Source of the DNA: Spironucleus salmonicida
Taxonomy: Eukaryota
Length of the DNA stretch: 64,000 bases
Direction of reading: 5' to 3'
Assembly (NCBI RefSeq): GCF_000497125.1
Contig: NC_090596.1
Location: 372,001-436,000 of the forward strand
The translations under genes and the position numbers were made by a program. Positions 2,981 through 59,889 of the stretch are shown piece by piece; position 1 is the stretch's first letter; each line of letters starts with the position of its first letter. A model generated the notes under the pieces. That model did no database searches. It saw only the letters and a program-made list of their open reading frames with translations, and was not told the DNA's origin.

Positions 2981-4078
2981 ATGCATTAATTTTTTGCTTT
3001 GTTATAATCATTTAATATTAAGTCAATGAGGATAATTAATGAAATTCCTTATGCACTTTTACATAATATTGATAAACCTGGTATTTATAATCTTCTTACT
3101 AATAAAATTGTATTAAAAACTCCAAGAGCGTAATCCTTTGCAGCCTCTGAATCAGACTTGTTTTTCTTCAGATTTCCTAATAAATATTTATCATAAATAA
3201 ATCCACAAACTTCTGAGCTGATCTCACATACCCCAGTTTCTTTATCACCAGGGTAGGATTAAATTTTCATATTCAAAACAACAATAGCTATATTGTATCA
3301 TAATAAAGATAATATTGTATTTAGTAATGGTCGAGAAGATTAATATTATGCTCCTAATTTTGATAATTTTCAGCCTAATCTAGAAAATTCAATTTAAATA
3401 CAAAATTTCGTTTTTTGTTCTAATTGTATTATTGAATTTGATGTTGAGAATTCATTTTTTTAAGCAAAAAGTTACGAAAAAAATTAAGGAGAGATTATAG
3501 AAAAATTAAAAGAAAATTTTCAAATAAACCATATTTTTTATAATGAGAATAATGAGATTATGATAAATGAGATGAAATAAATAGCTATATTTTTTGATTT
3601 AGAGTTTTGGTGGGAAGGATAACAGCTTTATTTTGAAATTTTTGATTTATTGTTCGATGAAGAAATAGTTTACAAGTCTACAAAAACTGAAATTAGGTAT
3701 ATGATGGAGTAAGGGGTGAAAAATTTGATGAATGTTGAGGATAACTTGAGTAGTAGTTAAAGTTAACTTAGTTAATTAAATAGCAAAAGTGTCAAAAAAC
3801 TTGATATGCTTTAGATTGATAGATTGTTAGAAAATAGCGATTCTGTTAGTATTTTACGAGAAGAAGATGAAGATATAGTTATTAAAACTCTTGATTAAGA
3901 TATAATATCACCTCCATTAAAAACTTTATCTTTATAGGACTAATACATTAAGAACTTAGAAAATATCAAAAAATTCGATCTCGTAGAAGCTGTAGATCGT
4001 ATATCTAAAACGGGTATAAGCGTTGAACTTGGTGCTGATAATTTATTCCAAGAGATGATCAAATTTCTAAATGGGTGA
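2981..4078 (+). CDS. hypothetical protein (365 aa)
   Basis: MHQFFALL...EMIKFLNG*; start and stop are in frame. Confidence 0.6.
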
Positions 4079-4161
4079 GTTTTAATTGTACCATTTAACA
4101 AAGAATTATTTTATTATATAACAAAATTATACTTTATAACATTAATTTCACTATCCATTAA

Positions 4162-4824
4162 ATGAAATTACAGCTTTCCGATGTTCTAGTTATTTCTTAG
4201 CAAATGAATGCTGAAGCAATTTAGACTTTTAGATGGATTCAACATGGTATTTCTGATGTATCTGTCCTTTCATCATGTATAAATTTAGTAGAACTTGATT
4301 TATCTTAAAACGCTATTACAGAGATTCTATTTATCTAATTTTTGCCTAACTTAAGACGTCTTTAATTAGATTTTAACGGTATACATTCACTTTAAATCTT
4401 CAATAAAACTACCATTAACGGAGACTCAATTTACAAACTATAATATCTTTCACTGAAACAAAATAAAATAACGAACCTACAACAGATACAGGCCCTTGGA
4501 AAAATAAAATCTCTGATTTCAGTAAATGTTCTATGTAACGAAATCCTTAATGATCCTCAGTTTTACCAATACGCCTTAGCAATGCTTCCGAATGTTCTTC
4601 ACCTTAACGAGACATAAGTTCGTTACGAAAACGGTGATCTAATAGATTTAGACAAGTTTATTGATTCTTTGCCTGGAACTGTTGAGGATGTTACTGTGGA
4701 GCCTTGGCTACCTGAGTCTGCATTTGATTTAATTGAGCTTCCTGGATTCAATGAGATTTGTATTGAGCTCGAGCAAGCCGTGAGGAGTTCAATTGAGAAG
4801 TTTTACGTATAAGAAACATAGTGA
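4162..4824 (+). CDS. leucine-rich repeat protein (SDS22/U2A'-like LRRs with LRRcap)
   Basis: LVELDLSQNAIT, LKRLQLDFNGIH, LQYLSLKQNKIT and an LPNVLHLN cap; ends in AGTGA. Confidence 0.8.
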
Positions 4825-4826
4825 TT

Positions 4827-5729
4827 TCAAAGATTTTCAACAGTTTAAAATTCATCAATTTCGGCAAGAATTTAGACATTTCCACTAGCCATCTTATGGA
4901 GTAAAATAGCATCGTCGAGTGCACAATGAACCTTGAAAGCAGAATAGTTAGATTAAGATTATAAACATAAAGTGGAATGGAAATAACAGGAAAAATCTAG
5001 TTAACGATAATTAGAATGTAAAAATTGTTAGTTATAAAAAGAAGAATATTCGTGAACGTAAACCTTCAGGACGTGCTGCTCCATAAACTTGTTTTTTGCT
5101 ATTAAAATATAAGGCTTAAAGCGTTCGCAGAATGTCCAGAAGTCGTCTAAAACAGTTGATAGCTATATGCCTAATGTTCCATCAAGTTGAGTAATTGCAA
5201 AGGCTCGATTTGATGCATTTTCAGGTTTTTTGATAAATTCGTGGAAAGTCGATATTAACTCGTTATTTTAGGATACTGCAGCTCCGATTTCAGAAGGATA
5301 TATTTATAATTGATGATTAATATGAACCTAGTCATAGGCTTCAAAATCTATATAAATCTTATATAATGGACATGGTGTAGGGTCAAACTATTCTATAAGC
5401 TCAACTTTAAGAGTTTTAATTTCATTACATTGCTAAGTTAAGTAAAATATTTAATTCTCAATATAAAACTAACACTAATCGTCATGTAACGGAAGAAGAT
5501 ATGCGGCTCTTTCGGGTTCCTCAAATCTGACTGCGAACAAAGGCCTAAGATTATGAATATTATTAAATTTTATAGGAATATGGTAAAATACTGTTGTATT
5601 TAATGTAATTTTATGCTTGGGGAAAAGTACTTAAATTTATTTTTAGGTTTGAATATATGACCCATTGATGAATATGAAAAGACTTTACTTATCAAGTACA
5701 AAATTTTATAAAGTCCAAATATTTGCCAT
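4827..5729 (-). CDS. DEDDh (DnaQ-fold) nuclease, Maelstrom-domain-like
   Basis: 300 aa with IYIDFEAY, YPSEIGAA, STFHEFIKKP, LIAKNKFME, SCYFH and HCALDDA. Confidence 0.7.
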
Positions 5730-5837
5730 CATTCTCCTGGTATACTAAGATATGTCAATGATGTGTTAAATAATTATATGTGGCTTAACGATCATTAAAA
5801 AATTATATATTATACTTATTATATAATAATATATCTT

Positions 5838-8429
5838 TCACTTTCCATCTTCGCCCTAAACGAAATTATGGTAAATTAGCATTTTCTCTTTTGCCTATTC
5901 CTGAATATCCAGCTCGATCTAAAATCTAACAATTCTTTCTTTAACTATGTCCTCTGCTTTTTTATGAATTTAATTGAATTTATAAGCAATATCATCGAGC
6001 TTGTCAAAAATCTTTTAAAGATACTACTTTTAAAACAAACTTTACAACTGTAAATAAACCCAGTCAACCTATTCTTAGTTAGAAATTGGTTATTCGGTTA
6101 TAGCAATTAAAAGCTGTAAAAGCATCTTACACGACTGCTGAATGGAAAATTGGTTCACAATCAAAATTTCTGAATTCTTTAAAACGCTCTCAAACTTACC
6201 AGAAAGCTGGTTAAAAACGATGCTCTAAAGTTCAACAATTTTCATTTTGTTTGTCTGGTCTTCGATATTTAGGACCTAAAGTCGAAGATATAGCTCTTTT
6301 ATGGCGACTACAGACGCAAAAAATGTTGAATCCTTCGAATTTGTAGCATCTAGACACGTCGAAACTGCCTACGAAATAGTGATATTCGACTGCTTTACAA
6401 CAAGGCTCTCGTCCAGCTATTAAAAGAGTATTCCTATTACCCTCAAAGCGGTGGACTAGACTCTTGATTGCTTGGATGCTAATTTGATGATAATTTCGAC
6501 CAAATTGGCATTCACCAAATACTTCTAAACCAAAATTCCGATGGTCTGCATGAGCGGTTTCTTCAAGTTTGCTGGATTCTTATTGTCGGTCATGAAGCCC
6601 ACGAGAAGTTCTAGGGTCTGCTGGATGAATGGTGAGTTAATGCTGATATCATCATATGTAATTTCTAGCTATATCAGAGTCTGATGAGCGTAAAATACGC
6701 GTGAGCGCTCGTAGTGCGATTCATCTTCGTGCTGAAAGTCGTCTAAACAGCAGTTGATAATTAAATTTTATAGCTATTCACGGATGCAATCATCCAATAA
6801 ACCAAGAATTTATACAGGTGTGTGGTATATTATACTGAAAAATCTGAAATCAACAGAAGCGTGTACAGATGACATGATAATACGGTTTAAGGCTTAAATA
6901 ACGTAATCTTCATAAAACTGAATCAGAGATGAATTGACAAAACCAACAGTTGGTGGGCGTACCAGGTTTTTCAGATCATTTTTAACTAAAAAGAACTGTA
7001 ATTGATAATTTGTAGTTTGTTTCTCTGGCGTCTTAGAAAGAACACCCAGAGTCAAATTTAGACCGTGCTAAAATGCTTGAATAAAATCTTATAACAAAGA
7101 TAAATTAAATTTTAGCAAGTCCTCGTTAATTTTTTCATCTAATACACTTTCCATCATATTTTCATATAATGAGCGTATCTTATTCTCTCCGTCTTCATTT
7201 AAAAATAATTTCAAATTTTCTTCAAAAGGAGCAAGATCAACGATAACACTTAGAGCTGGATAGATTGCCAAGAAACTACTTAAAAACAGCATTTGATCGA
7301 TTATTGACTCTTTACTAAAGTCGTATTCCCATTAATTGAAAACTCCAAATTAATTATTATTATTAGCTCCATTAATATCTTTCCAAATATCGTGTTAATT
7401 GTCATAAAAGAAGGTTAAAAAGTCAATTGTATCAGCCAAAGGAGCATAAAATCTTTATAAAATACTTCTATAATAAGGTCCATGTCGGAACTCATTGAAA
7501 CTATAAGAGGAAGATATATCGCGTTTTAAACTCTTTAAAATTAGAGTTTTTATTTTAATACTCTCCCCACTCTCCAGTAATAAAGTTAATATTTAAGGTC
7601 TCAAATTAAACCAGCTTATACTTGAAAGTAAATTTTCGTAGGTGGAAAGAATTAGTAAATCAAATGTAACATCATTTTTAACTAAAAGGTTCAGTTTTTC
7701 AATAGTTTCCTAAATAGCAATTCCTTGGATTATAGACTATGATAGTATATTAAATTTTTCAGGCATACAAATTGCTTATTTAAAAACATTACGGGAATCA
7801 AAAACAGCAATATTAAGCGTTTTTAAGGCTTCTCTAACGATCGTTATATCAGAACTAGCTAAAAATTTTGTAATAATAGCGTTTTTTCCGAACAGTACAC
7901 CCCAAAATTGCGAAATTTGCGATGCAGAATTTTTAAAAATTGCACCTAAAAGTATAATAAGCTAAACTTTATGCTTTGTTTCAACTTTATCAGCTGAGTT
8001 AACGCAATGTGTTACTATTTTTTGCATTGATTTTGCGTCGTTTCTAGGATCTACTTTGTGCTTTGATTGTTTATAGAGAATGTCAATTAGTATTTGTGTG
8101 TATTTTTGCAGTGAGTCATCACAGTCTGCGCTAGCGAAAAGGTCAGCGGCCTGGCTCCAAAACAGTCCTACAGCCTCCCAGGAGACAAATTTCGTGCGCG
8201 CAAGCGAATGAGAAGCGATAGCTTTGAATAGAGTTATCTCCTCTGAAGATAGTTGGTGCTCCTTAAGAAGCTCAATAACCCTAATGAGAAGTTTATCGCC
8301 TTAGCTGCTACCGGTTCTAACCTGATGGTTTAGTAGATACTTGTCAAGCTTAAAAGCTATTTTTTTGAGCTCTTATATGTTGGTTGATGATAGAAACTGA
8401 GTATAAAGTTAGTTATATTGGGCCTGCAT
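5838..8429 (-). CDS. ARM/HEAT-repeat alpha-solenoid protein (863 aa)
   Basis: Frame includes track ORF 7089-7292. ARM-like segments QKYLVNANLVEIIIKLASKQSRVQSTALRVIGIL and LASSDITIVREALKTL; ends in AGTGA. Confidence 0.65.
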
Positions 8430-9100
8430 TTATTTAAAAAAGGAAAGGATAATTAAGTATTGAATTATATAATAAATATATATGTTATAAAATAATGGAA
8501 ACGAAAATTAATATTCTAGTCAATTATATAATATTACAGACATAAAATACATATGCTTTTATTATTAATAATTGATGAATAAAATTACTGCATAATCTTG
8601 CCAGACTTAATGATCTATCTGTTATAATTGATTGGCTTTTTTACTATATAAAATAAATGTTATCTTATCTTATAAGTAAACTACTGAATTCTATCAAAAT
8701 ACAACTAGTGATGATCATACTTTTTGTGATAAATAAAATAATGATATAAAAATATAGAATATATGAATAATTTTATTAGAAAAATAATTATAATTTTTAA
8801 ATCTATCTATCATATTGGTAGGAAATATAAAATGTACAAATAAATAATAAAATCAGTATCCTTTAAGAACAAAACAAAGTTGTGTTAGTTATCAAAGATA
8901 TAAAAATTATGTCTACAAATTAGTATAGTTTAATATAAAATATTTATAGATTAATGAGAGAAAGGTCTTTATAAATAAAATATAAGTTGATGTAATAATT
9001 TAATATAATGATAATTATATTCATAAACTAAATAAATATTATCTGGGATTTTCCAACTATAAATAAAATACTTAACCTATAATTATCATAGAATTTGCAT

Positions 9101-11388
9101 ACTTTGAACTATCGAGGTATGTAATAAAAAGCGATAATAAAATATAAATTTATCTTCAAAATATGTACATATTTGAATTTTAATGTTATTACTAATATTT
9201 GTATTCTGCTTTAACCTAGACTTAAACTTTTAAGTCCTCTTAAAAACTATACGCGCCTTTCCTATTATAAAACAACCATAGTTTCTAGCTACTCTACTGC
9301 ACACCTACCAGGATTTTTACCTAGCATCTTGTAAATAAATGAAGCTAAAAGCGTTAGTAAAGTGTTAATCTTGTGAAACTGGCAAGTTTCTTACAAGTGC
9401 TAGCATTCGTGATGATTGAAATGCTGAATACAAGAATTACAGTAGCACCTCTGAAACTTGTTCGGAATGCAAGAATGACAAATTTCTAATCGGTCGTAGG
9501 TATTCCAATAGTGTTGATGACCAATCTTTCCCTTGCATATGAAATTTTGCCACCTGCAAGACAGATAGAGTCAAACGGGAAACATGTATCGGCAACGATG
9601 ATACCAATAATTCCCGTCCCTATTCCGTGACAAAGGTGGCTTTTCGAGTCTGTTGAAAATCACTCTAAGTCTTGCTTTGCATTTTCTAGGAACTGCTACA
9701 CGTCTTCTAGTGCAGCTGCATGCACAGCATGCGCTGATTGGTACGCAGTGGACATTAATCTCGCACGAAATGCTCTGCCAACAAAGACACCTGTACGGAA
9801 TCCCAAAGGGACGTCAAAGTAGAAGATGACAAATACGTAAAATGTAACCAAGAATATTAATGAACTGCGAGCCCTATAAGCTCAACCGCCTGCTCCTCAT
9901 GCACTGCCGGGTACAGTTTATATGGAAGTCCCTGCGAAATCTGCTCAGACAGGCGCCTGAACCACGATGGAGACAAAGCAACCTGCTAAGCCTGCAAGGA
10001 TAACTTCTATAACTGGCACAACAATTGCTAGGGCTGGATTACGAACATGGTATACAAAGTTCAGTTCAGCACGGCCACCGAACGAACTACCTGGTATGCA
10101 ATTTACGAATACATGCGCCGATAACAATGCAACCGGTACGACGTGTAGGGTTGGCTTCGATACCAGCAGCTCCTGCACTAAAACTGCAATCAAAACTCCG
10201 ATTGCAGCGTAAACTAAATCCACTCCACCACCTGTAAGGACTGCATCTCTAACTTCGCTAACTGATCTGGACCCCTAAGCACCCGCTGGCCTACCTCCCT
10301 GGGAATTTACTGTAAGTAACTTCCTACACCGCGTGCTATAATGCGTGATAGACGTATTCTACCAGAAAAGAACCTACACTCTTTGCAAAAAACCTATTTT
10401 CTCAAAGATGGAAAATGCGCTTCCTGTACAGGAATAGAACAGAATAATGCTACTGCAATACTGAAGCCGGCTTTGCTATCTGCGATGCTTCTGATGGTAA
10501 TAAATTATCCGCCTGTATAAATGGCAATAAAAGACTCCAACAGCGCTAGCTCAGAGTGTGATCCTGCCTGCACCAGGGCAGTGCGTGGTTACACGCATTC
10601 CACAGGAATATAAAAAACCTGCTCGATGTACTCGGAACTTCTGATATTTATGCTTAAGGATACCAGATCTACATCATCCAGACCCGTGAGCAAATTGCTC
10701 AGATAAAATGGGCGCCAGGAATGCATGTGGTGGGACCGCCGTGGTAGATTAAGAAGAAAAGTACAAAATAGTAGCAGAAAACCCGAGTTATGCCGGTAAT
10801 GTTCTGAAAACACTAAGTTTTAATATTTATTTTCGTGTAAATTGGAACATAATCTATAGATTAATGATTTCAAATTCCATTAACGCCTATTACAGGTAAT
10901 ATAACGAGTTAAAAATATAGAACTGGTACGCAGAGTAGCTAAGACACTACTCCGCAGAATGTACAACTACCTCTTTAAAATTAATAAAACATATAGCCTT
11001 TTAAATCAGAGCATATCTCAACTTCAATAAGCTGGTATCGTAGGTCCTAACTTTACGATATAACTTTTATCATCAAAATATTCATATAATGATAGCAAAT
11101 AGAGGTTAACGAAAAATAAAACGATGCCCATGGGTGATTCAATTTTCAAAGTCCAAATATCTGCATGCTAAAATGAAAATACAAATATATATCAGTACAG
11201 TGGCAGCTTGAGATCAGTAAATTTAGTGTAGGTGATAAAATAATTTTATTTATTCAAATTCCGAGGTTTTAGCAAGTCGCAATAAATAATTTAGTACTAG
11301 CGTAAGAGTTACTCTGGTGCACGTCAGTTCTACTCTAATTTTTTCCTGTTCTTGGTAGTCTCATAATAATCTTAGTTAGTAGTAAAAA
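9101..11388 (+). repeat. left arm of a 2288-bp inverted repeat
   Basis: Reverse complement of 34369-36656 (paired coordinates sum to 45757). About 7 substitutions seen by eye; the arms have equal length. Confidence 0.97.
9183..11388 (+). pseudogene. decayed cysteine-rich membrane protein (CRMP/VSP-like) pseudogene
   Basis: Signal-like MLLLIFVFC start. CxxC units (KCQSCETGKFL, TCSECKNDKFL, ACTACADWY, ACSSCTAGY, TCQACKDNFY) are spread over several frames with TGAs. The 3' boundary is uncertain. Confidence 0.8.
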
Positions 11389-25164: not shown

Positions 25165-27027
25165 TCATTTAAATTTTTCTGCAAATTTAATGTCTTCATC
25201 AGTAAGATGTGAAACTATATACATTTTTTAACCTAAAATTATTGAAAATGTAACTTTTTGAGCGTTTCTAACACTGCTTTTCCCAATAGTTAATGGATCT
25301 TATTCACGCTACTTAAAAAATTTATTCTCCAAACCATTGAAATATGCAACATGTTATGTAGCCGCAGCAAATGCTGCATTAACGGTAGGTGGTTCAAACA
25401 TATCATAGAACTTTGTTTAATTTTTTAATTATAAAAATATTTTCTTCTACAAACTACTTTATTACTACCATAAAATTTATTAAAAATCATCTTAAAAACC
25501 ATCATTTGGTATGAATATATCTCCTGAAGCCATAAAACTTGCTATTTTTAAAGCTTCATCTTGAAATGTTGAGCAAATAGTAACAAAAAATGCAAGTTCT
25601 GGACCTAATGATATTTAAAGGCAATGATGACCAAATTACGTTAATTTAAGATAATTATTGTCATGTGTGATAAATTTTAATCTAGAAAGTGTTTCAATAG
25701 CCATTAATAATTTTTAAGAATCAGGAGGGTCTGGAAATGGATAACTAATTATAGTTTATATGTAAATTTCACTTAAAGAATTATTAGAAAGAAGTAGAAT
25801 AAGGTCACAAATTGTTTATTCTAAACGAATTCTAGATATTTCAGGGGTAGTGTGAGATTTAAGATTCTTATAATTCTCTTAAGAAAGTTAAGAAAAAAAT
25901 ATCCCAGGCCTAACTCTACCTGCACGTCCCTTTCTCTGCTAAAATGATGATTTTGATATAGTTTCTATAATAAGTGTGTTAGAGTGCTTTTAGTTATCAT
26001 AATATAATGTTTTTTGCATAGCTGAGTCAATTACAATTGTGATATTTTATATTGTAATAGAAGTCTCTGCAATATTTGTAGAAATAATAACATTAATAAC
26101 ATTTTCTTAATAATTTTGAACAAAAATTTCGTTTTATTTTTGAATTGATAGCTAGCCATGTAATGGAAAGAAATTAAATTGAATCTTGCGCTTTAAGTTA
26201 ATTGTAGTATAAAAATTGTCCAAAAAAATATCTAGCTTTTTAAGCTATTATAAAATGTTATAAATTTCGTTTTATCCTGGCATGAAAATTAAAATATCTC
26301 CAATATATTTATTGATATCAAGTTTCATATTGTTAATTTGATAACCTTTTTATTAAGAATAATGTTAAAACTCCTGCTAATATTTTTCTTCAACAGATAA
26401 TTTTACTATGATTTGTTATGATGTTTATATAACAAACTAAGTAAACTATTGAGATGATTGGTTATATACAACTTGAACTGGATACATTTTTCCGGATACA
26501 CATAGTTCATTTTCTTAAGTTTATTAGGATGCAGAGGTAATAATCGTTTTAATATTTTTTGTAATAAGATATCCTCTAATTAGATCTTGTGCTGCTGTTC
26601 TTTCATGCGCCTCATCAACGATCACCCAATATTCACTAAATTAAGTAGCACATCTTAAAAACATGCCATCTGTAATAAAAATATAATTCGTATTTTTAAT
26701 TCGTTAGTCAAATCTGACCATATAATCACAATTTAAAAAATTAGCTAATGATACTGCCGCTAGTCGTCTAGGTTAAATTATTACAACTTTTTAGTTGAAA
26801 TACTTAAAAATAATTTGAGGTAATATTGTTGATTTTCCAGAGCCAGTTTCTGCTCGGATAAAAAGAATTTATTAATTCGATGATAAAAAATTAGCAATTG
26901 TATTTTCTTACTATGATAAAGGGAAGTCCTAGTTTAATTCAATTTTATTCAAAGGTATCTTTTAGCTTGGCCTAAATTTTAGTTAAAGTTTAGGTCTTTC
27001 AATTTTTTATGTTGGCTCTTCATTCAT
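25165..27027 (-). CDS. DEAH-box RNA helicase (Prp43/Dhr-like)
   Basis: AETGSGKS, QPRRLAA, TDGM, DEAHERT, FMPG, STNIAETSITI and QRKGRAGR. Confidence 0.93.
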
Positions 27028-27295
27028 ATTTATCGGTTATATACGATATATAATTATATGTTAAAGTTTAAAATATTAATACATAATTATTGGTATAATA
27101 TAACTAACGATATAGTAAGAGAAAGACTAATAAAACTTCCTTTCCTAGACTCGTATTCACTTATAGCTAACATTTTATTGCAATTAATAGTTATAAATTA
27201 ATCTACTCTATTATTTAAAGCAAAAATACTGTAATTATCACGAAAATATATTATATTTATTTTTGTAATATAATAACTTTATTAATTAATTTAAA

Positions 27296-29691: not shown

Positions 29692-30249
29692 ATGTCTAAG
29701 TATACTTCTCTTTGCCAATAATTATTCTTTTTCTATGCTTAATTTTTATAAAGTTATGATAAACTGAATATTTAGTTTATAATAGCTATATTGTTGGCAT
29801 TTAAGTTTGTAGTTAAGTAGTTATAACAGTTAGAAATAATGAAAGTTTTTATTTGTTAAAATTTGATATTTCATCACTAAATGTTAAAGTAGACTAATAT
29901 CCCTCCAAAGATTCCTATAGCTATGCTTCTGGCTAATCCAATTTTTTCTTATCTTTATTCAATTTTTAGTAATTATTCTTAAACTTATTCTAAATTTCCT
30001 TTACCATTAAATATCATAGGAAACCACTCTATATATAGCTCTTATGATAAAATTTTTTTAAGTATTGCCTTTGGGGTTTTGATAAATTATAAAAGTAATA
30101 AAAATATACTAAGAACAAAAGACACAAATAACAAAAACTATTTGCTGAAATATATACTACCTTCCAATAATTTACGCTTTAATAATATTTTAATCTATTT
30201 TTACTTTCTTATGTGTATTTTTTATGCTTATGATTCAAATCCCTTATGA
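29692..30249 (+). CDS. doubtful ORF (185 aa) in a low-complexity AT-rich region
   Basis: Open frame only; no motif and no AGTGA end. Confidence 0.2.
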
Positions 30250-30586
30250 AGAAAATCTGATATTTTATCGGCTTCTAACTATGAAGCGGACTACAAGATG
30301 TTTTGAATGGAACGTTATGACTATGGATTTGAAATAAAAGGTAATGGGTGCAATTAATGTAGCGGAGTATGAAAATGAAGCTTTTAATTGTTAAGATATA
30401 AATAATCTTAAATATCATATACACCATATGACACAGAAATAACTGTCTACTATAATATTTTAATCTATTATTCCAAGTTCATAATCTATTATTACTACTG
30501 CAGTATGGTAGACTATAACTATTACATTTACACATTCATTTTCTATAATTAACTATTTATTATTTATGATATCCTTATATTAAAAA

Positions 30587-31804
30587 ATGTAAGTTATCTA
30601 AGAATCGCTAATTTAAATCAACAAATCAGAGTAAATCGTACTGAAGCAGCACATTATAGATATTTTAACGGATGAAAACAATGCATATTACTCCAGAAAA
30701 CTGAACTAATTGATACCTTTTTCAACAGTGAAATTATACTCTGAAGAGCAAACCTACTATTAAAACAAGCTGAATCAGAGCCTTTTAGCATGTGATTTCT
30801 ACTAAAATGAACCAAATATGCTAGTGTACTCCCTATTGATGCTCGTCCCCTCCCCGCATCATTTCTGCCCCCACTTCATCTCGAACTGCGCCGTGCAATG
30901 TAACATTTGCAAGATTTTCCATGACTGCAAATACTGTCACCCTTCTACTCATGCATTCAAGTTTTCAGGCAAAATTTAGTGTAAATCATGCGAATGCGAA
31001 CAGGAAATGGTGGCCAAATGTACGAGGTGCGGCGAGGTCCTCAACGTATAAAGCTGTGTAATTTGTGGTATTTCAACGCTCATTCCAGCCGACATCGTAC
31101 CGCTCTTCCACTGCCCCGACTGTACACGCTGCATCACTGGCACGCCAGAACTCGCAATTCACTGCTTCACCTGCGGCCGCTGCGCGCTGCCCGATCACTT
31201 GTGCCTCAAAAACGAGCAATGTAGCGTCTGTCTCGACGACTTTAATGGGTAGGGTGGGGTTACCGTTCTCGAGTGCCAGCATGCGCTTCACACGCAGTGC
31301 TACGAGAAGCTCATCTACTAGGTCGACGAATGCCCACTCTGTAGGTACCAGGCATCTATGGGGCTAGCAAGTGGCGTGCTTTCGCTGGCCAAGGAAAAGC
31401 TTTTCCAGGAGTACGTTGAGCAGAAGCGCCTGGACATATTTGTGGACTGTAAGTGTAAGAAGTGCACCTATCGGTTCATTTCGCGGGATCGGAATTGCCT
31501 GAAGTGCTTCAAATGTGGTTAATTTGCAGTCAGCAAGGGCGGGGTGCGCGAATACGAAGGGATCTATTAAAAGTATATAGAGTAACAATATGTGGAGGAG
31601 CCCGTGCAAATATTGGCAGAGTACCTCAAGCGAACGATGAAGGAGAAATACTTGCCGAAAGAAGTTCAATTTGTAGAGAATGATGCATTTTAGTAGCTTC
31701 TAGATGAGCTGGATGTGAAAAACGATAAGCATCTAGTCTAGCTGCTCAAAGACGTTGAGTTTCCGAATACTTTCCGGCTTTTGATGGAAAAAGTTTTATA
31801 GTGA
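30587..31804 (+). CDS. CHY-RING-zinc ribbon E3 ligase (Pirh2-like), paralog 2
   Basis: FCPHFISNC, CKYCH, RING CSVC..CQHALHTQC..CPLC and CKKC..CFKC; intact, ends in AGTGA. Confidence 0.85.
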
Positions 31805-32731: not shown

Positions 32732-34054
32732 ATGACCCTTCACCCTCTCTTAATTCCCACGCATGCTAAGCAAATATAAAACTGTCAAACTACTTCGTAA
32801 ACTTACTTAAATGCATTAGCAGTCCGTCCCGCATATCAAATTGAAGCTATTGAAGTTGTATATTTTTTAGAAATTAATGGTAGAAAACACTTAACTCAGG
32901 CTGCAGTTATCACACCAGTTGGTGATAATTCTGCATTTTGGGCTCGTGAAACTTAAAAATTATTCAAAATTTGTAGTTTGCAAACATACTCCTAGGATCT
33001 CAAACCATACGAAATGCGCCGAATTTCTCATCTTTAAAACTATAAGTAATTGCTTCAATCGTCTAACTATTTTGGTTATTTCTTTAAATATTATTCACGT
33101 CCTGTTACAGGTTGTTTACACTAAATTTCTGGATGTTCTTATAATTGTGCAACCTGTAATCGTTTTCATATCTGTGTAAACTGCCATAATGATATATCAC
33201 CAGAGCATCCCGTCAAGTATACATTATAAATTAAATGCTTGTTTTGTGATTTTATATAACATTTTGCTTCCACTTGTGTTAATTGTAAGTAAAAATTCGG
33301 TAATTATTGTTGTGATATCTGCTAAGTAAATACACACGAAACGGACTTTTCGACATCATTATTTCATTGCACAAAATGTAATTCCTGTCACTAAATAGAC
33401 TTTGAATTTTGTGAAATATGCCATCAATGTAATAACGATATGGAGCATATTTGTGGTTCAGACCAAGTTTGCGTTGTGTGTTTTGAAAAAATGAGTAATG
33501 ATCAAGTTTAAAGCGATTGTAAGCATTTCATGTGTTATAAATGCTACAGATTGAAAATCAGTGAGAATGACGTTAAATGTCCAATTTGTAAGAAAACTTT
33601 TCTACTTGAACAGGATTTAATTGGTTTCAAGGTGAAATTTTAAGAAATATACAGCTCAATGTATAATACTAATAGTGGTTTAATAAAAAATTAGTGTAAT
33701 GATTGTGGAAAAGTTATTTATTAAAAAGAGAATATTATATAGTATTGTAAAAGCTGTAATTTTTACAATGTTGAAAAGTTGTATCATATGGACTAGATGG
33801 AAAAGGAACATTTGTTTGAACCTAACTTAAAAAGCATGAAATAGTATTTATTAGATGTTTACAGTGATGAGATACGCTCAAAGTTTAACTTAAAAGGTGC
33901 AAATGAAAGAAAACTAATTAGCGAAATATATAAGTTTTTGGGTATTTCTGCAGATAATCAAACAGCTTGTAAAATGATGCAGGTGGTGAAGGCAGGAATG
34001 AGGCTTGAGCAGATTAGAGTTGAGCTTAAAATAAGAAGGAATAGTAAAAAGTGA
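32732..34054 (+). CDS. CHY-RING-zinc ribbon E3 ligase (Pirh2-like), paralog 3
   Basis: GCLHQISGC, CVNCH, RING CVVC..CKHFMCYKC..CPIC and SGLIKNQCNDC..YCKSCNFYNVE; intact. Confidence 0.85.
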
Positions 34055-34368: not shown

Positions 34369-36656
34369 TTTTTACTACTAACTAAGATTATTATGGGACT
34401 ACCGAGAACAGGAAAAAATTAGAGTAGAACCGACGTGCACCAGAGTAACTCTAACGCTAGTACTAAATTATTTATTGCGACTTGCTAAAACCTCGGAATT
34501 TGAATAAATAAAATTATTTTATCACCTACACTAAATTTACTGATCTCAAGCTGCCACTGTACTGATATATATTTGTATTTTCATTTTAGCATGCAGATAT
34601 TTGGACTTTGAAAATTGAATCACCCATGGGCATCGTTTTATTTTTCGTTAACCTCTATTTGCTATCATTATATGAATATTTTGATGATAAAAGTTATATC
34701 GTAAAGTTAGGACCTACGATACCAGCTTATTGAAGTTGAGATATGCTCTGATTTAAAAGGCTATATGTTTTATTAATTTTAAAGAGGTAGTTGTACATTC
34801 TGCGGAGTAGTGTCTTAGCTACTCTGCGTACCAGTTCTATATTTTTAACTCGTTATATTACCTGTAATAGGCGTTAATGGAATTTGAAATCATTAATCTA
34901 TAGATTATGTTCCAATTTACACGAAAATAAATATTAAAACTTAGTGTTTTCAGAACATTACCGGCATAACTCGGGTTTTCTGCTACTATTTTGTACTTTT
35001 CTTCTTAATCTACCACGGCGGTCCCACCACATGCATTCCTGGCGCCCATTTTATCTGAGCAATTTGCTCACGGGTCTGGATGATGTAGATCTGGTATCCT
35101 TAAGCATAAATATCAGAAGTTCCGAGTACATCGAGCAGGTTTTTTATATTCCTGTGGAATGCGTGTAACCACGCACTGCCCTGGTGTAGGCAGGATCACA
35201 CTCTGAGCTAGCGCTGTTGGAGTCTTTTATTGCCATTTATACAGGCGGATAATTTATTACCATCAGAAGCATCGCAGATAGCAAAGCCGGCTTCAGTATT
35301 GCAGTAGCATTATTCTGTTCTATTCCTGTACAGGAAGCGCATTTTCCATCTTTGAGAAAATAGGTTTTTTGCAAAGAGTGTAGGTTCTTTTCTGGTAGAA
35401 TACGTCTATCACGCATTATAGCACGCGGTGTAGGAAGTTACTTACAGTAAATTCCCAGGGAGGTAGGCCAGCGGGTGCTTAGGGGTCCAGATCAGTTAGC
35501 GAAGTTAGAGATGCAGTCCTTACAGGTGGTGGAGTGGATTTAGTTTACGCTGCAATCGGAGTTTTGATTGCAGTTTTAGTGCAGGAGCTGCTGGTATCGA
35601 AGCCAACCCTACACGTCGTACCGGTTGCATTGTTATCGGCGCATGTATTCGTAAATTGCATACCAGGTAGTTCGTTCGGTGGCCGTGCTGAACTGAACTT
35701 TGTATACCATGTTCGTAATCCAGCCCTAGCAATTGTTGTGCCAGTTATAGAAGTTATCCTTGCAGGCTTAGCAGGTTGCTTTGTCTCCATCGTGGTTCAG
35801 GCGCCTGTCTGAGCAGATTTCGCAGGGACTTCCATATAAACTGTACCCGGCAGTGCATGAGGAGCAGGCGGTTGAGCTTATAGGGCTCGCAGTTCATTAA
35901 TATTCTTGGTTACATTTTACGTATTTGTCATCTTCTACTTTGACGTCCCTTTGGGATTCCGTACAGGTGTCTTTGTTGGCAGAGCATTTCGTGCGAGATT
36001 AATGTCCACTGCGTACCAATCAGCGCATGCTGTGCATGCAGCTGCACTAGAAGACGTGTAGCAGTTCCTAGAAAATGCAAAGCAAGACTTAGAGTGATTT
36101 TCAACAGACTCGAAAAGCCACCTTTGTCACGGAATAGGGACGGGAATTATTGGTATCATCGTTGCCGATACATGTTTCCCGTTTGACTCTATCTGTCTTG
36201 CAGGTGGCAAAATTTCATATGCAAGGGAAAGATTGGTCATCAACACTATTGGAATACCTACGACCGATTAGAAATTTGTCATTCTTGCATTCCGAACAAG
36301 TTTCAGAGGTGCTACTGTAATTCTTGTATTCAGCATTTCAATCATCACGAATGCTAGCACTTGTAAGAAACTTGCCAGTTTCACAAGATTAACACTTTAC
36401 TAACGCTTTTAGCTTCATTTATTTACAAGATGCTAGGTAAAAATCCTGGTAGGTGTGCAGTAGAGTAGCTAGAAACTATGGTTGTTTTATAATAGGAAAG
36501 ACGCGTATAGTTTTTAAGAGGAGTTAAAAGTTTAAGTCTAGGTTAAAGCAGAATACAAATATTAGTAATAACATTAAAATTCAAATATGTACATATTTTG
36601 AAGATAAATTTATATTTTATTATCGCTTTTTATTACATACCTCGATAGTTCAAAGT
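34369..36656 (-). repeat. right arm of the 2288-bp inverted repeat (second copy of the CRMP pseudogene)
   Basis: Reverse complement of 9101-11388; the ORF track shows identical mirrored entries. Confidence 0.97.
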
Positions 36657-36897
36657 GTATAAAATAGTTGACTATTGATACATTCGCTAAAATTTAATTT
36701 TTATCAAATTTACAATGATAGTACTGAGCAATAATAAATAAAATATTTCATAATTCGTAAGTAGTATATAAAAATCAAGGTCTTTTTAATCAATTTAAAT
36801 AATAAACAATGTCAATGAATGTTATAAATTAGTTATAATTATGTATATTAATAAGTAAAATATACGATATTTTGTATTTTACGAACCTTTCTTCATA

Positions 36898-46739: not shown

Positions 46740-49700
46740 ATGATAAAGCTAAAACGGTCCCTAAATAAAATACTAAAGCATGTTAACACATCTGCGTTAA
46801 CTAAACTATTATTATATAATGAAAAACTATTTAATGTGACTACTTCTACACATTCGCTACAAATTGATGATAGTAAGTTATTTTTTACTTACATAGAGGA
46901 TGCGGAAGATATTTTATCTAATATATTTTCAGATCTTAAAAATTTATATTTAACTGCATAAGAAACAGAGATAACAGATATTATTAGAGATTATGCAGAT
47001 CTTTCATCTTTATCTGAAATAATATTTCAAGGGAATCATGTATATTTTCAAATGCTACTATAGGAGGTTATTTTTACTTAAACAAGGTTTGATGACGAAC
47101 AATATTTAACAAGTATCAGTTGTAGATTTTATAATGCAGATGCTGAAAAAATATCACAATGCTTATTTATACCGTCTATAGCATATAGAAAATAGGTGGA
47201 ACGTTTATCTATTAATTTTACACTTTCAAAATATGCAAAACATGCTCTAAATACTTATTCAGGACTTAAACAAATCACACTTACTATTACAGACGATAAT
47301 AATCATGTAGTTGATTTGCCATTCTCAGAAAATATGGAAAAATTCACATTAGTTAAGTAATTGATTAATACTTTTGAGATAATAGATATATATACATCTT
47401 ATCCTAATTTGATGTTCTTTTCTATTTCTTGCTCTATTGTTTAACATATTAATTTAAACTTTAGTAAGTAAGTTACTTAGTAATAATTATCTTCTAATCG
47501 ATTGAACTAAGATATTTAGTTTAAAAAGAACAAAGTTATTTAAATAATGCAATAAAAAGGGTGTTTGGAAATTTTTAAGTTCTTCTCGATTTCTGAAATC
47601 CCTGTTGATCTTTTTATTTTAATGACGTCAAACTAGCCAAAGATTCAAGAGATATTAATCAGTTCACAATTAGTATAGTCCAATTATACAGTATAAAACT
47701 TTGAAAAATTATAAAATTGGTTGAATCCAGATGTATTTAATAAGATTATTTAAATTTATAAATATGATAAATTTAAGGCAACAGAAAATCAATAAGAATA
47801 TAGGGTAGATGATGTTATTTTTGATATAAATCATTTTAATGAGGAGTATATACTTTAATAGAAGGCTACAAATTTAAAAGATTAGGTTTAAAAAACCTAA
47901 TGGAATATTCCTTCAAGATCATCTTTTGTTATTGATGAGAGCAACATTGATCATTATTTATATTAACAGCATGATTCTATATTCCACAGATCTATTAAAT
48001 CAATGGGAAAACCTCGAACAAATTCTCATACATTAATGTATGAAAAAATGATGCTATTAGCTGCCAATTAAAATAACAGTTCTAATACGGATTTAGAGTC
48101 AGAGTCAGAGTTTTATTCGTCGTCTTTCAATTCATCTTTATATTCTGAATCTAGTAGCTCAAGTTTAGTGTCACAAAGTATTAAATATGGTCGTAGAAAG
48201 ATTTCTTAGACAAATTTAAAACAAGTAAAATAAACGCCAGTTTTAGATGATAATTAAGTTCAAACTGTACGTAGAAGTTCATTTATTTAAGACAATCAGG
48301 ATATTTTAACAAACTGGACTATGGATACTAATATAGAAATACCTGTTTCAGAATCATTTGTTTCATATACAAAACCAACATTATATTAATAAATTGACTA
48401 ATCCATAATCAAAAAATCATACACTGAAAATGGAATTAGCTTAGATCAGTATATATCGGGTACTGAATTATAGGATGATTCATTAATTTAAGAAGAACCA
48501 TAGCATTTTGCCCACGATGACACAAGGTATTACTAGAAAAAGAATAAAAAAATACTAAAAAGATCTTGGTCTTCAATTCAGTTTTTTTCTATAGAAAAAA
48601 CTAAGCAACATTTTATATTTTAGAAAGGTGTATCACAATTTATAAATGTATATTTACGTAATGAAAAATAATCAATAATAAGATCTTTGTACTTATAACT
48701 ACCATTTTGTAAATTTAGCGAAATTAATTAAACAAAAGCGATTTTCAAGAAGCTTTTAGATAATTAATGTATAAGACAAGATAAAAGGGAAAAATATTGT
48801 TAAAAATCAGTTAAATAGCTAAAAGAGCTTATAAATGAGTAGGATATATTCTTTAATACAACGTAAATTGATGAAGATTTTGAGTTTTCAATGGTTTAAG
48901 ACTTTACATACGATGAACGTTAACATACATTGAGGGATGAAAAATAAGAATTTAAAGATTAATATTTCACATTTGATACTTTTTAGTAATAACTTTTTAA
49001 TAATTTCTATGATAAGTAAACTATGGATCCAATGAGAGTATAAAATTCTATCTTAAATGAAAATAATAAACAAGAACGTCATATGTCGATTATTCCTAAT
49101 GCCCATGTTTAAAATTTCCTTAGTATGAATTTGCCAGAAAAGATGTTCGGAATTACTTTAAATAAACATAAATTTTAGTTAAAAAATGATGAATAAGATG
49201 AAATAGCGATTTAAGAAATTGAGTAAAATACAACCGCTGTTCATATATCTATAATTTTATTTGTTATTGCGATACCATAAGGTACTAAAAAATTAATCTT
49301 GTTATAAGTACTTTTTACTGAATTTACATTCAATTTTTTAATCAATCATTTATCTTGTTTAGAAGAATTAGAATTGCAAGAATTGCCATTATTATCAAAT
49401 GCCACAACGTCCAGTCAGTCCATATAAAAATTAACTTTACTAGACCAAGGATATTTATCTATTTAAATTTTAGATTCACTATTCCCATGTTTAAATGATT
49501 TTTTCGGTGGTAATATTTTCTTAGATAATGATATTATCCATACGATGAATTTATAATTTATTAGCATTAGTTAAAGCAAGAATTTAAGCAAGAAGGCTTT
49601 ATAGTAATTTATTTAAGGAAATCAATTTACTTTGCAGTCATTAAGTTTGGATAACTGTCCAATCCCTTTTATTTAGTGCCAAATGAATAAACTAGAGACA

Positions 49701-49988
49701 CTTAATTGTAAAAATATTATATATTCTTATTCAGAATATTATATTAATAATTTAAGTTTAGGTCACCTTGATTTTTTGTAACTTATTATTTAAAGTCCAA
49801 ATATGTAAACTGCGTGTTATAATTAGATTACTCAACAATATTAAGGAGTATTTGATTACCAGAACTAATTCAATGTTATCAATACACATTATTGTAGCTA
49901 AATGGTGTCGGTTATCGTTGATTCACCTCTTGTCCAAGTTATCAAAAAATTTGTATCACGAGAATGTTTTATTTAGATTATGGAGTGA
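46740..49988 (+). CDS. large protein with degenerate LRR-like segments (1082 aa)
   Basis: LEELELQELPLL and LQSLSLDNCP; Ser-rich middle region; ends in AGTGA. Confidence 0.65.
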
Positions 49989-50510: not shown

Positions 50511-50783
50511 ATGAGTGATAAAAAATTATTTAGAGTGACATCACCTGGATAGATAGCAGTTTATGATACACGATTTATATATGCTGAGCATATGGAATAT
50601 TTTTTAGCATAGGAGAAAACTTTTTTAAGTAAAGAGATTTAACAATTAGTGAAAAAAGAGTAGAAATATAAGGTTTAAAATGAATCATACAATAATAGTA
50701 AATCTACAAATTCTAAAGGTGAAAAATAAATGAATTAAGACTAAATATGTTAAATAGTAGGAAAATTTTTCAATCACTAGTGA
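50511..50783 (+). CDS. hypothetical protein (90 aa)
   Basis: Open frame ending CAC TAG TGA. Confidence 0.55.
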
Positions 50784-53479
50784 GATTTATTAAATTCAAT
50801 TAATGATTTTAATATATCTTTATAATTATCACATGGAAGAAGCTTTAATTCTAATTATCGATGTTAAAAATTATAGTTTAATAGTTCTAAGCATTTATCA
50901 AGAGTAATTACTTCTATATCTTAGATGGTTACTTATTTCTCTTCTACTGGTTTTGTCCAACTACTCCAATTTTTCCTATCTGGATCTTCTTTTTAGAACT
51001 TCAGTACTTTTTTAAATTTAGATTTAATTTACTCTTTATTTTCTGTTAATATTACAGGTTAGGGTTTCGTTATTACGAATGTTGGCTTATCCATTAGTTC
51101 ATAGATTTCTTCATACTCAGAGTTACTAAACTACGCCTACCATGTCTAAAATTCTTAAATAGATGCAAAAATCCAATTATTTTTTTCTGAATATTTTTAA
51201 AATTTACCCCAATATCCATTTGTACATGATTGGCCTTTGAATACAATAAATGAATACTAAGCACGACTTAGTGCAACATTTACTCTACATCCATTTTCAA
51301 CAAATGAGTCAATCCCGCTATTTTCCGTTTTTACATGTGAAAAAATAATAATTTATCTCTCATCCCCTTAAAATGCATCAACAGTTGATACTAAAATACC
51401 CTCGGGAAGCATTTCTCGAAGAAAGTCAGACTATGCACGATATGGTGTGATGACACCAATTTATATTAGTAGAAATTAACTTGAATTCAATAAATATACT
51501 ATAAAATCTTTAATAGAATATGCTTCTATTTTATTTACTCTTGATTGATTACATTTTTCATCTTGTGATTTTAAGTGAAAGGTCGCTACTGGAGGCATAA
51601 TACCAAAATTATTCTTAAAATTATGCTTTATTTTTATCTTATTGGAACTAGCTGGAAGATTTTTATCGTAGTCCTCTTTTTCAAACTAATAATCAAGTAA
51701 TTTTTGTTATAATATAATTAAATAAGGATCAATATTAGTAACAACATTTCCATTATAAAAAAACATAGAAGATAGTGCTGAGATATGTTTATTGCATCTA
51801 TATTATTCCCAAAGAGATATAACCTCCATTCCAGCTTCTATAAATCTTTAAAAAATTGATTTTTCAATACTTTAAATTGAAGAAATAGGGGGTAATTATG
51901 CTGGATCTCCACATAGTATGATTTTATGTGATTAAACTAAACTTGAAATATAAATATATTCAAACTCTTTCATTTAACTTGCTTCATCTACAATAACTAA
52001 ATCAAATTATTAGCATTAACATTTAGAAATACTTGAGCAGGTAACAAATGAAGCAAAACATGATGGATTAAAAGTATCTCTTTAATAGTCAGAGAGATTT
52101 TTGTTTGCTAAATTTGAGCCTAACCTTTAAAATAGCCGTTATGGAATATCTGTAACTGATAATCTTGCTAAAATATTATCAATTGCAGTATTGGTAATAG
52201 CAGTGACTAAGATTTTAAATTCGTCACCAAATAGATAATACAAGTGCTAAATTAAATTAACAAGAGTTTGAGATTTTCCGGATCCAAAAACTCCTCGAAT
52301 TAAAAACAATGTCTAATAACTATTTTCTTATACATATGAATCAATAACAGTTTTAAAAGCTTTGTATTAATAATCATTTAGTTATACACTTGATTTGCTT
52401 GGAATTTAAAAATCATGTATTTGATACTCAAAATTCTATAATTATATGTCTTTTGATAAATTTTTATTATATATAGCAGCTAAATTCTTTAAAAAGTTTA
52501 AGCTAAATTAATTGAAATTCTATCTTTAAATCGTGTCAGTGAGTTAATTAAAATATTAGAGCATAAGTTAAAATTTACTAAGATGAATGAATGATAATTT
52601 TTTTCCATTTTTATTATAAATATCAAAAAGTTTTGGGTTTAACTTGCTGAATGGCAATAACCACACTTCTAGCGAGTTACTTTTTTCATAACTATCAAGT
52701 ATAAATAAATGCATTTATTATTCAAATTAACTAATATTAACTATAACAGCGATTAAATCATTTTTACTAAATTTTATTTAAGTTTCGAATTAAAGCTTTA
52801 ACCTCGCTTCTATTGCGTTTTCAGTTTAATATTTATTCTTTGGATAGTAGAAAAAGTTTCCCTGAAAATATTCTAACGTATTCGCGATTTCTATTAAATT
52901 ATAAAGCAACTCACAAGAGATTTATTGCAAATTTGCTAAAAAAATATCATTGAGTGTATTCACTGCTTCAAAGTTGTTATATTTTTTAAGTAGTTCTAAA
53001 TATGACTTTATTTCGTTCCTTTAAACTGGGAATATAATTTATTATTTACAAGTAAGAAAATTTATAGAATCATCAAGTTATCTATTATATTTTTCGATAT
53101 ATAAAGAGTTTTAAATCGGTTTACAATTTTTTTATGGAGGTTCTATACTTATTGTTGAAGTAATATCTTACTGTTCTATAATATGTAGTTAATTTTTTGG
53201 TTATGTTTGTTAGATCAAGTCACCTACAATAATATTATGTTTAGACTTTGCATTAGATAGTTTTATTTTCGATATTTATAGCTCATCTTACAGTTAAATT
53301 AAGAACAAAGTGGTGGTAATGATATCGTCCTTCAAGTTTTTTTCTTCATATTAAAAGCTAGCTACTATTTTTTACGTAGATACATCTTTTATATAAAGTG
53401 TATTATTTTTTATTAACAGTAGAGCATCTATCCATTTTTTAACCTTTTATGTTTTCTACTTGGTGTACAGTACATTCAT
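50774..53479 (-). CDS. ZGRF1-like SF1 (UPF1/DNA2-family) helicase with N-terminal DUF2439
   Basis: MNVLYTKQKTQKVKKWIDA (DUF2439), GVFGSGKS, TNTAID, DEASQ, GDPAQLPP, YRC, TVDAFQG and RVNVALSRA. Confidence 0.85.
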
Positions 53480-59661: not shown

Positions 59662-59889
59662 ATTAAAAATAAAATGAAACGCGTTATCTTAAAACTAAAC
59701 TCTAGGCTAAAGCTATTAACATGAATTATATGATATAAAAAATGGATGATAGCGAAATTAATCGGGAATATCTTCTAAATGTGATTATAGAGTAGCATCG
59801 TACGAATATTCAACTGTTTACGATTCATCTTATAACACAATAAGTAATCTCATTTTGACGGTATATTATTTAATATAAAATATTATATT

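Follow-up and report, generated by a model that had tools for sequence, protein, structure and literature searches.

In a 64,000-nucleotide (nt) stretch of Spironucleus salmonicida DNA (the window, in whose positions all coordinates are given), we analyzed a minus-strand gene at 4827..5795, whose product we refer to as the exonuclease. We found that the C-terminal ~175 amino acids (aa) of this protein very probably form a DEDDh (DnaQ-H) exonuclease domain. By eye, E147, C248, H251, and C269 of the domain fall at the sequence positions of the zinc ligands of the Maelstrom (MAEL) domain, of the T. brucei protein RIF4 (TbRIF4), and of arenavirus nucleoprotein (NP). On balance, we lean toward the joint claim that a MAEL-type zinc site, made of this Glu/Cys/His/Cys (ECHC) set, is present and that the protein is a ribonuclease (RNase). 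Judged by its sequence, the exonuclease appears to be a very divergent protein of the DEDDh kind and an orphan. Residues are numbered according to the 300-aa form that starts at 5729 (label P0001). The features of the gene, with the two relatives P0003 and P0004 introduced below, are as follows.

4827..5795, minus strand: whole open reading frame (ORF) under NCBI translation table 6 (code 6), encoding 322 aa and closed by TGA at 4827-4829.
5732 or 5729, minus strand: alternative start at Met22 or Met23; 5729 is Met23 of the 322-aa ORF and gives the 300-aa form.
5379..5729 (to 5795 if Met1 is the start), minus strand: N-terminal region, residues 1-117 of the 300-aa form, of no known family.
4875..5378, minus strand: DEDDh (DnaQ-H) exonuclease domain, residues ~118-285, as placed by profiles and a domain model.
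5340..5348, minus strand: ExoI D128-F-E130 (in IDFEAY), placed under the D and E columns, both nearly invariant, of a KapD-like alignment.
5283..5300, minus strand: Y144-P-S-E147-I-G149, predicted beta2; E147 is the candidate zinc Glu.
5232..5246, minus strand: F162-H163-E-F-I166, where the MAEL EHHCHC set has its first His.
5079..5099, minus strand: ExoII A211-K-N-K-F-M-E217, with Glu at the catalytic place; the column is Asp in at least 90% of the KapD-like rows.
4977..4988, minus strand: C248-Y-F-H251, candidate zinc Cys and His, invariant in P0003 and P0004.
4908..4928, minus strand: ExoIII H268-C269-A-L-D-D273-A; H268 and D273 are the catalytic positions and C269 is the candidate fourth zinc ligand.

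We found that profile searches, weak but in agreement with one another, point to DEDDh exonucleases for the C-terminal part of the protein. When residues 118-300 were searched against NCBIfam, the matches were PolC (TIGR01405; E 2.8e-4), KapD (NF005838; E 1.2e-3), and PolC again (PRK00448; E 1.7e-3), all of them on DEDDh exonuclease regions. We also built a local hidden Markov model (HMM) from 30 KapD-like domains of Bacilli (66 of the 121 genomes searched had a KapD-like match). Residues 127-278 of the exonuclease aligned to positions 7-168 of the 180 positions of this HMM, with ExoI, ExoII, and ExoIII in register, at a score of 14.2 bits (E 4.5e-6 for 3 targets). In the corresponding KapD-like alignment (A3), the columns of H268 and D273 are invariant and those of D128 and E130 nearly so, and E217 lies under the ExoII Asp. 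The ExoI D-x-E, the ExoII acid, and the ExoIII H-x4-D are thus present in order and in register with family members. A sequence search of the PDB returned 2p1j, the PolC exonuclease of T. maritima, at E 0.27-0.52, with EIGA and H.ALDDA aligned. Among the named clusters of the ESM atlas, most of the rows listed for residues 118-300 were RNase_T at 0.91-0.92, which we treat as a lead only; Arena_ncap_C at 0.82 is a weak lead of the same kind. A search of the PHROGs library gave no match.

All of the motifs quoted in a preliminary description of this stretch, which was made from the sequence (D-F-E, YPSEIG, FHEFI, AKNKFME, C-Y-F-H, and HCALDD), are present in the code-6 translation. The combined motif pattern occurs once in the 127,996 residues of the six-frame code-6 translation of the window, and 47 of 200,000 shuffles of the exonuclease protein produced the pattern C..H.{5,25}HC...D. 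That description had also stated that the DEDDh residues are kept. This holds in that all five catalytic positions are filled, with the qualification that the ExoII acid is Glu (E217), not Asp, so that the pattern reads D-E-E-D-h. The Glu is kept in P0004, where ExoII reads AKGKFMEQ. Because Exo II of nidovirus ExoN is written as D/E (PMC7968707), Glu at this place may by analogy be tolerated and would be compatible with an active enzyme.

We next give the structural comparison. A full-length AlphaFold model built from the three family sequences was unusable (predicted local distance difference test [pLDDT] 35.4, predicted template modeling score [pTM] 0.24). In contrast to this rejected model, a model of the domain made with alignment A3, which was seeded with KapD-like proteins, had a mean pLDDT of 69.3 and a pTM of 0.70. 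Its residues 1-50 and 71-90 average 78-94, and the block 151-160 averages 85 (adding 117 to the model numbering gives the protein numbering). Searched against the PDB with Foldseek, the domain model gave 25 matches at E<=0.001, nearly all of them named DEDDh exonuclease domains (E 3e-5), led by Pol III epsilon, 3'hExo/ERI1, ERI2, DnaQ-like, PolC, DinG-exo, and QIP. Among the 50 BFVD rows listed, the matches were mostly exonucleases of phages and giant viruses. VIA-align, run over 48,161 chains, found 32 chains at Z>=8, and more than 15 DEDDh structures scored Z 10-12.7: DinG-exo 12.7, epsilon 12.4, Cap18 11.8, a TREX1 homologue 11.7, 3'hExo 11.6, PolC 11.6, REXO2 11.4, and RNase T 11.0. The fold of the C-terminal domain, as modeled, is that of a DEDDh exonuclease, RNase-H-like alpha/beta.

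The gene has few relatives. The 322-aa protein is the sole full-length database entry (label P0002) and is encoded on a 1.92-Mb contig. An exhaustive phmmer search of 1.84 billion representatives gave 2 matches at E<=0.001, the protein itself and a 63-aa fragment (P0003), and a family-profile search added a second relative, a 133-aa fragment (P0004). Both fragments come from other assemblies and are 41-49% identical to the exonuclease; their shortness would be expected if code-6 genes had been called with the standard code. P0004 also had a Pfam match to PIH1 at E 0.12, below the cut-off, which we treated as noise. A word-index protein search with the 300-aa form, at near and shorter lengths, found nothing beyond the protein itself. 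Likewise, scans of metagenome contigs (two scans), viral contigs, and genome contigs yielded no related locus, and the window itself showed no paralogue when its code-6 translation was searched by tblastn with the 300-aa form and P0003. We found that C248, H251, H268, C269, and D273 are invariant in all three family sequences and that C255 is Val in P0004; the region of E147 lies outside both fragments. Positions 4827-5727 are covered without differences by contigs of 4 runs of one study, which we guess to be RNA. This is a real, lineage-restricted gene of a diplomonad-type protist that uses code 6.

Code 6 is the right code for this stretch because adjacent code-6 ORFs have strong Pfam matches: among those nearby are Cpn60 (1.3e-44), a thioredoxin-reductase-like Pyr_redox_2 (2e-51), and one leucine-rich repeat (LRR) protein. 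Under the standard code, just 1 ORF of at least 60 aa overlaps 3500-7500. Within the exonuclease ORF, in-frame TAA and TAG are read as Gln at 22 codons of the 322-aa form and 20 of the 300-aa form. Genes in this stretch are dense and uninterrupted, with a GC content of 24-33%, as would fit a code-6 diplomonad; the stop of the upstream gene inside AAAGTGA and the contig end with a T-run, both given below, fit one too. Translation may start at 5795 or at 5732 or 5729; of the probable-RNA contigs, none covers 5728-5826 to decide between them. Composition favors a start at 5795 (Met1), because the GC content of the Met1-Met22 extension (0.303) resembles that of the ORF (0.30), unlike the AT-rich 42 nt upstream (5796-5837; 0.048). 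This upstream segment is itself a feature of the gene.

5796..5837, minus strand: 42-nt spacer, 95% A+T, a probable promoter, between the stop (5838-5840) of the upstream 863-aa gene and Met1.

A/T-rich promoters have been described for S. salmonicida (PMC3916229).

As noted earlier, the ECHC residues were recognized by comparison with MAEL domains. Zinc in Bombyx MAEL is bound by E137 (on beta2), C290, H293, and C302, and the positions of the ExoIII Asp and the ExoI Glu are occupied by R306 and N124, respectively (PMC4408791). C269 of the exonuclease stands 4 residues before D273, as Bombyx C302 stands before R306. Supplement 1 of PMC2628886 contains MAEL rows that keep the DEDD residues: two Entamoeba proteins and rows from L. 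braziliensis and from three trypanosomes, T. brucei, T. vivax, and T. congolense; the T. brucei row is RIF4 (per PMC3359990). These protist rows have in common D-x-E, P-x-E-I/L-G/A, and aromatic-H-x-x-L/I...P, a Lys for His in ExoII, and C-x-[YF]-H followed after 7-17 residues by H-C-A-L/M-x-D-A (PMC2628886). By eye, the counterparts in the exonuclease are IDFE, YPSEIG, FHEFIKKP, ILIAKNKFME, and CYFH-x16-HCALDDA. Their order and spacing (ExoI, 17 residues, P-x-E; C-x2-H, 16 residues, H-C-A-L-x-D-A) also fit the protist rows by eye. Taken singly, E147 fits the P-h-E-l of the MAEL consensus and is aligned with the E-I/V-G of KapD-like proteins, FHEFI fits the aHpblpP of the supplement, and C248-x2-H251 fits the C-p-a-H of the MAEL alignment.

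As a control, we took 60 Bacillota DEDDh domains, 30 of them KapD-like and 30 the best RNase_T matches. We found that a CxxH 5-25 residues before the ExoIII His was present in none of the 60, and neither was D.E...P.E[ILV][GAC]. In its sequence, the exonuclease looks built like the DEDD-retaining protist MAEL nucleases. We did not file it as a member of the MAEL family, because it has no Pfam Maelstrom match, its EHHCHC set is short of the second His, and the controls are bacterial only. It is possibly the first metamonad example of the ECHC-bearing DEDDh subgroup; a full-text literature search for Maelstrom with Giardia, Trichomonas, or diplomonad found no MAEL-type protein reported there.

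Among known proteins, the nearest in build are the MAEL nucleases of protists. EhMael of Entamoeba histolytica (EHI_192630), which has both the DEDD and the ECHC residues, degrades single-stranded RNA and is a Mg/Mn-dependent exoribonuclease (PMC4408791). Like EhMael and the other DEDD-retaining protist MAEL proteins (PMC2628886, PMC4408791), the exonuclease combines the catalytic set and the Glu/Cys/His/Cys residues in one DEDDh domain. It is also alike by eye in DFE, P-x-E-I-G, aromatic-H-x-x-L/I...P, the ExoII Lys, and C-x-[YF]-H followed by H-C-A-L-x-D-A. In contrast to these proteins, it has no Pfam Maelstrom match, has Glu in ExoII, and lacks the second His of EHHCHC. Its spacer between CxxH and HC is also longer (16 versus ~7 residues), and it has an extra 117-139 aa at the N terminus.

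TbRIF4 (Tb927.10.8880), a 3'-5' exonuclease acting on duplex small interfering RNA (siRNA; PMC3359990), likewise consists of a C-terminal DEDDh domain and, ahead of it, an N-terminal region that belongs to no known family (PMC3359990). Its row reads C-W-Y-H...H-C-A-L-K-D-A, with ~22 residues from Cys to Cys versus 21 in the exonuclease, and its VLINKGSLMD stands against ILIAKNKFME. TbRIF4 differs in its length (490 aa), in its strict co-occurrence with Argonaute and Dicer in trypanosomatids, and in having no detectable sequence match to the exonuclease. In Lassa NP, an active exoribonuclease carries DEDDh and ECHC motifs (note added in proof of PMC4408791; PMC7968707). Arenavirus NP (Lassa; lymphocytic choriomeningitis virus [LCMV]) thus shares with the exonuclease a DEDDh 3'-5' exoribonuclease type with an ECHC zinc-site residue set, active in NP, and differs in being viral and fused to an NP core domain, in its lower structural scores (Z 8.1 and 7.5), and in giving no Pfam match (PF17290). 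Animal Maelstrom (Bombyx 5AF0, Drosophila 4YBG) has a DEDDh-like fold with the zinc E on beta2, a C-x2-H, and a Cys at the ExoIII Asp minus 4 (PMC4408791). It has lost its catalytic residues, is nuclease inactive, has an HMG (high-mobility-group) box at its N terminus, and belongs to the PIWI-interacting RNA (piRNA) pathway (PMC4408791), whereas the exonuclease retains the catalytic residues and is without an HMG box.

KapD/ERI1 (3'hExo) and Pol III epsilon/PolC supply the best profile and structural matches, with collinear DEDDh motifs. KapD-like proteins are only 12-22% identical to the exonuclease, and CxxH was absent from 60 of the 60 sampled bacterial DEDDh domains. ExoII of KapD, ERI1, epsilon, and PolC is W/H-G-N..D, versus A-K-N-K-F-M-E here. 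In the KapD and PolC models, the exonuclease scores far below the family cut-offs, and it has neither a SAP domain nor a polymerase context.

It is possible, although we think it unlikely, that the protein is a DEDDh exonuclease of an ordinary type (ERI1/KapD or epsilon/PolC) that evolves fast, acts on DNA or RNA, and is devoid of a zinc site; its Cys and His residues would then be peculiarities of the lineage, and its likeness to MAEL a coincidence. A number of observations weigh on this side and against a MAEL-type zinc site. The top profile matches are PolC and KapD, and these are themselves far below the curated cut-offs (for KapD, 18.4 bits versus 169). The preliminary description had looked to HMMER searches with the Maelstrom and RNase_T profiles, and these gave it no support: at E<=10, neither the 300-aa and 322-aa forms, nor three C-terminal fragments, nor P0003 matched any Pfam family, Maelstrom (PF13017), RNase_T (PF00929), and Arena_ncap_C included, and P0004 matched none of these three, with the limit that the HMMER filters discard most matches above ~E 0.1 and a very weak Pfam match might escape. 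The best PDB sequence match was to a phage protein that looks unrelated, Phi92_gp135 (E 0.0026-0.007). We rejected it as a chance match: the aligned part is without the DEDDh motifs, and the protein is absent among the fold-search matches listed. The comparison with the MAEL and RIF4 rows was made by eye and is unscored, and the control set is bacterial only. By eye, 5 of the 6 EHHCHC residues are present; the second His is missing, with AFAITQ at the sH.l position, although in Bombyx MAEL this His is not a zinc ligand (PMC4408791). An HC at ExoIII was found in 3 of the 60 control domains, all 3 of them among the 30 KapD-like proteins (genes at loci L124, L125, and L130 of Bacilli, which read H-H-C-A-L-D-D-A). 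Because of these, the HC dipeptide by itself is not diagnostic of MAEL. A His of the FHxxI type and the Glu of EIG also occur in some ordinary DnaQ-H domains (PMC2628886).

The structural ranking points the same way. The MAEL structures scored below DinG-exo, epsilon, 3'hExo, PolC, REXO2, and RNase T (Z 11-12.7): Drosophila 4YBG had Z 9.6 (rank 20), 9NHC_F, the Bombyx Maelstrom of a SIWI complex, 9.2 (rank 23), and Bombyx 5AF0 8.8 (rank 25). Lassa NP (8.1, rank 35) and LCMV NP (7.5, rank 45) followed. Neither MAEL nor arenavirus NP is among the Foldseek matches listed (40 PDB rows, to rank 49, and 50 BFVD rows). In addition, protein residues 227-259 and 261-266 (model 110-142 and 144-149), which hold C248 and H251, have a pLDDT of <50. 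The model alignment consists of 30 KapD-like sequences, so that the fold match is partly circular. For the same reason, the ranking is unable to split generic from MAEL-like domains, and the absence of MAEL and NP from the Foldseek rows, obtained with this model, is not evidence against kinship.

In contrast, C248, H251, and C269 are invariant in all three family sequences at 41-49% identity while C255 varies, the CxxH element occurs in 0 of 60 bacterial DEDDh domains, and the full set, including P-x-E and the ExoII Lys, follows the protist MAEL and RIF4 rows. The structural ranking that favors an ordinary exonuclease is biased by the KapD-seeded alignment. Of the proposal that this is a MAEL-type RNase, the DnaQ-fold DEDDh domain and the ECHC residues at homologous sequence positions stand, and formal MAEL membership does not: Pfam Maelstrom gives no match and the MAEL structures are outranked. 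The best matches do come close to what the preliminary description had set against MAEL kinship, namely, matches of the ERI1 and Pol III epsilon kind (DinG-exo, Pol III epsilon, 3'hExo/ERI1, PolC, and REXO2 at Z 11.4-12.7 versus 8.8-9.6 for MAEL), again with a KapD-biased model.

In our favored reading, the gene encodes a protein of two parts, N-terminal ~120-140 aa followed by an active-looking DEDDh 3'-5' exonuclease domain. As in the family generally, two Mg2+/Mn2+ ions would be bound by D128, E130, E217, and D273, with H268 as the general base, and nucleotides would be removed one by one from the 3' end. We infer that E147 (on beta2), C269 (beside the catalytic His), and, from the loop ahead of the last helix, C248 and H251 form a structural zinc site that would tie the loop to the sheet, as in MAEL domains, the Entamoeba MAEL nuclease, and arenavirus NP. 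By analogy with the MAEL nucleases, NP, and TbRIF4, RNA, whether single or double stranded, is a likelier substrate than DNA. An extra N-terminal domain of ~125 aa had been described earlier, and we did find a region of 117-139 aa there. It matched no Pfam family and no solved relative in the PDB sequence search. Matches of this region to WipA (Pfam WipA_Phos, E 0.06; PDB WipA, E 0.036-0.07) are at noise level and were rejected.

For the cellular role, we infer Argonaute-independent trimming or decay of RNA 3' ends, in which the N-terminal region would supply the choice of substrate or partner. Such a role seems likeliest because code-6 diplomonads are reported to be without Dicer and Argonaute, and S. 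salmonicida also without RNA-dependent RNA polymerase (RdRP). According to PMC3916229, searches of S. salmonicida found no Dicer, Argonaute, or RdRP, and the expression of its cysteine-rich proteins must be regulated otherwise. For newly sequenced diplomonads, PMC11437800 likewise states that no Dicer or Argonaute was identified. Our guess is that Argonaute-free trimming or decay is more economical than an Argonaute-linked role. More tentative, and on present evidence doubtful, is a further reading: a genuine MAEL/RIF4-type DEDDh exoribonuclease, zinc braced and catalytically live, which diplomonads free of Argonaute, Dicer, and RdRP would have retained together with a new N-terminal module.

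A place in small-RNA silencing is very improbable. The preliminary description had suggested that a MAEL-type RNase could act in small-RNA or repeat silencing, e.g., of genes for cysteine-rich surface proteins, and TbRIF4, which matures siRNA duplexes for Argonaute, offers a comparison. The motif pattern does resemble those of TbRIF4 and the Entamoeba MAEL, TbRIF4 is an essential factor of RNA interference (RNAi; PMC3359990), and expression of the variant-specific surface proteins (VSPs) of Giardia is said to be RNAi regulated (PMC3916229). This suggestion did not hold up against the reports just cited on S. salmonicida (PMC3916229) and the new diplomonads (PMC11437800). In addition, RIF4 belongs to a group of five genes that only RNAi-positive trypanosomatids have, and its retention normally tracks RNAi (PMC3359990). 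Within the window, we found no Piwi, PAZ, Dicer, or RdRP domain in the 32 ORFs scanned against Pfam (the exonuclease ORF and 31 others).

The least probable explanation is a dead or decaying gene, either for a pseudo-nuclease of the RNA-binding, animal-Maelstrom kind or in the form of an ORF that is spurious in a code-6 genome rich in A+T; with TGA as the sole stop, long spurious ORFs are common (ORFs of 87-199 aa overlap the exonuclease stretch), ExoII has Glu for Asp, and there are almost no database relatives, but the five catalytic positions are filled, E217, H268, and D273 are kept in P0004 and H268 and D273 in P0003, an ExoII Glu is compatible with an active ExoN (D/E, PMC7968707), two homologues exist in other assemblies, probable-RNA contigs lie over the ORF, and the DEDDh profile match is collinear.

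The exonuclease gene has close neighbors on both sides. A convergent LRR gene at 4162..4824 on the plus strand ends in TAGTGA, with 2 nt between its stop and that of the exonuclease (4827-4829, minus strand). The 3' ends of the two genes must overlap as antisense transcripts, because the stops are only 2 nt apart; contigs of 3 of the 4 probable-RNA runs bridge both genes. The upstream 863-aa gene (5838..8429, minus strand) has its stop at 5838-5840 inside AAAGTGA. At 5827, a contig of run X5 stops in a loose end of 8 Ts, which fits a poly(A) 11 nt past the stop of this gene. A poly(A) signal AGTGA that overlaps the stop has been described for S. salmonicida (PMC3916229), and the AAAGTGA and the contig end match this signal.

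Farther along the window, a 2,308-nt inverted repeat (9081-11388 and 34369-36676; 99% complementary, with 22,980 nt between the arms) has the look of a recent segmental duplication in inverted orientation. The code-6 ORFs that each arm contains (320-375 aa) match no Pfam family. Two helicases, an Upf1-like superfamily 1 (SF1) helicase at 50774-53479 (minus strand; AAA_11/AAA_12, 8.7e-35) and a DEAH-type helicase at 25165-27084 (minus strand; Helicase_C, 2.2e-13), belong to RNA metabolism, and we saw no reason to link either of them to the exonuclease. Of two adjoining Cys/His-rich ORFs on the plus strand, at 30224-31804 and 32732-34054, one matches a RING finger (7.8e-10) and the other a CHY zinc finger (1.9e-7); they are possibly paralogues and E3 ligases of the Pirh2-like kind. 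Further Pfam matches of the window include a hydrolase, an aminotransferase, a kinase, and a UBA domain. Large ORFs with no Pfam family (E<=1e-3 or 1e-5) are those at 5838-8429 (minus strand, 863 aa), 46740-49988 (plus strand, 1,082 aa), and 55498-59853 (minus strand, 1,451 aa), which is typical of the many lineage-specific genes in such genomes.

DEDDh exonucleases are ubiquitous, and the fold itself is ordinary. What is unusual here is the zinc-site residue set of Maelstrom, RIF4, and arenavirus NP in an orphan-like protein of a lineage reported to be without RNAi machinery. If the zinc site and the RNase activity are not confirmed, the protein is one more fast-evolving exonuclease of a parasite genome. 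If they are, the known range of live MAEL-like nucleases extends to metamonads. Should the MAEL/RIF4-type reading be true, the ECHC nuclease would have existed before siRNA and piRNA pathways recruited it, and independently of that recruitment; in its ancestral role it would have worked on RNA without Argonaute, such as by trimming or destroying double-stranded or structured RNA, and metamonads would join Amoebozoa, Euglenozoa, and animals in its range. If confirmed, the exonuclease would provide a natural test of such an enzyme without Argonaute and would bear on the origin of Maelstrom and of the arenavirus ExoN.

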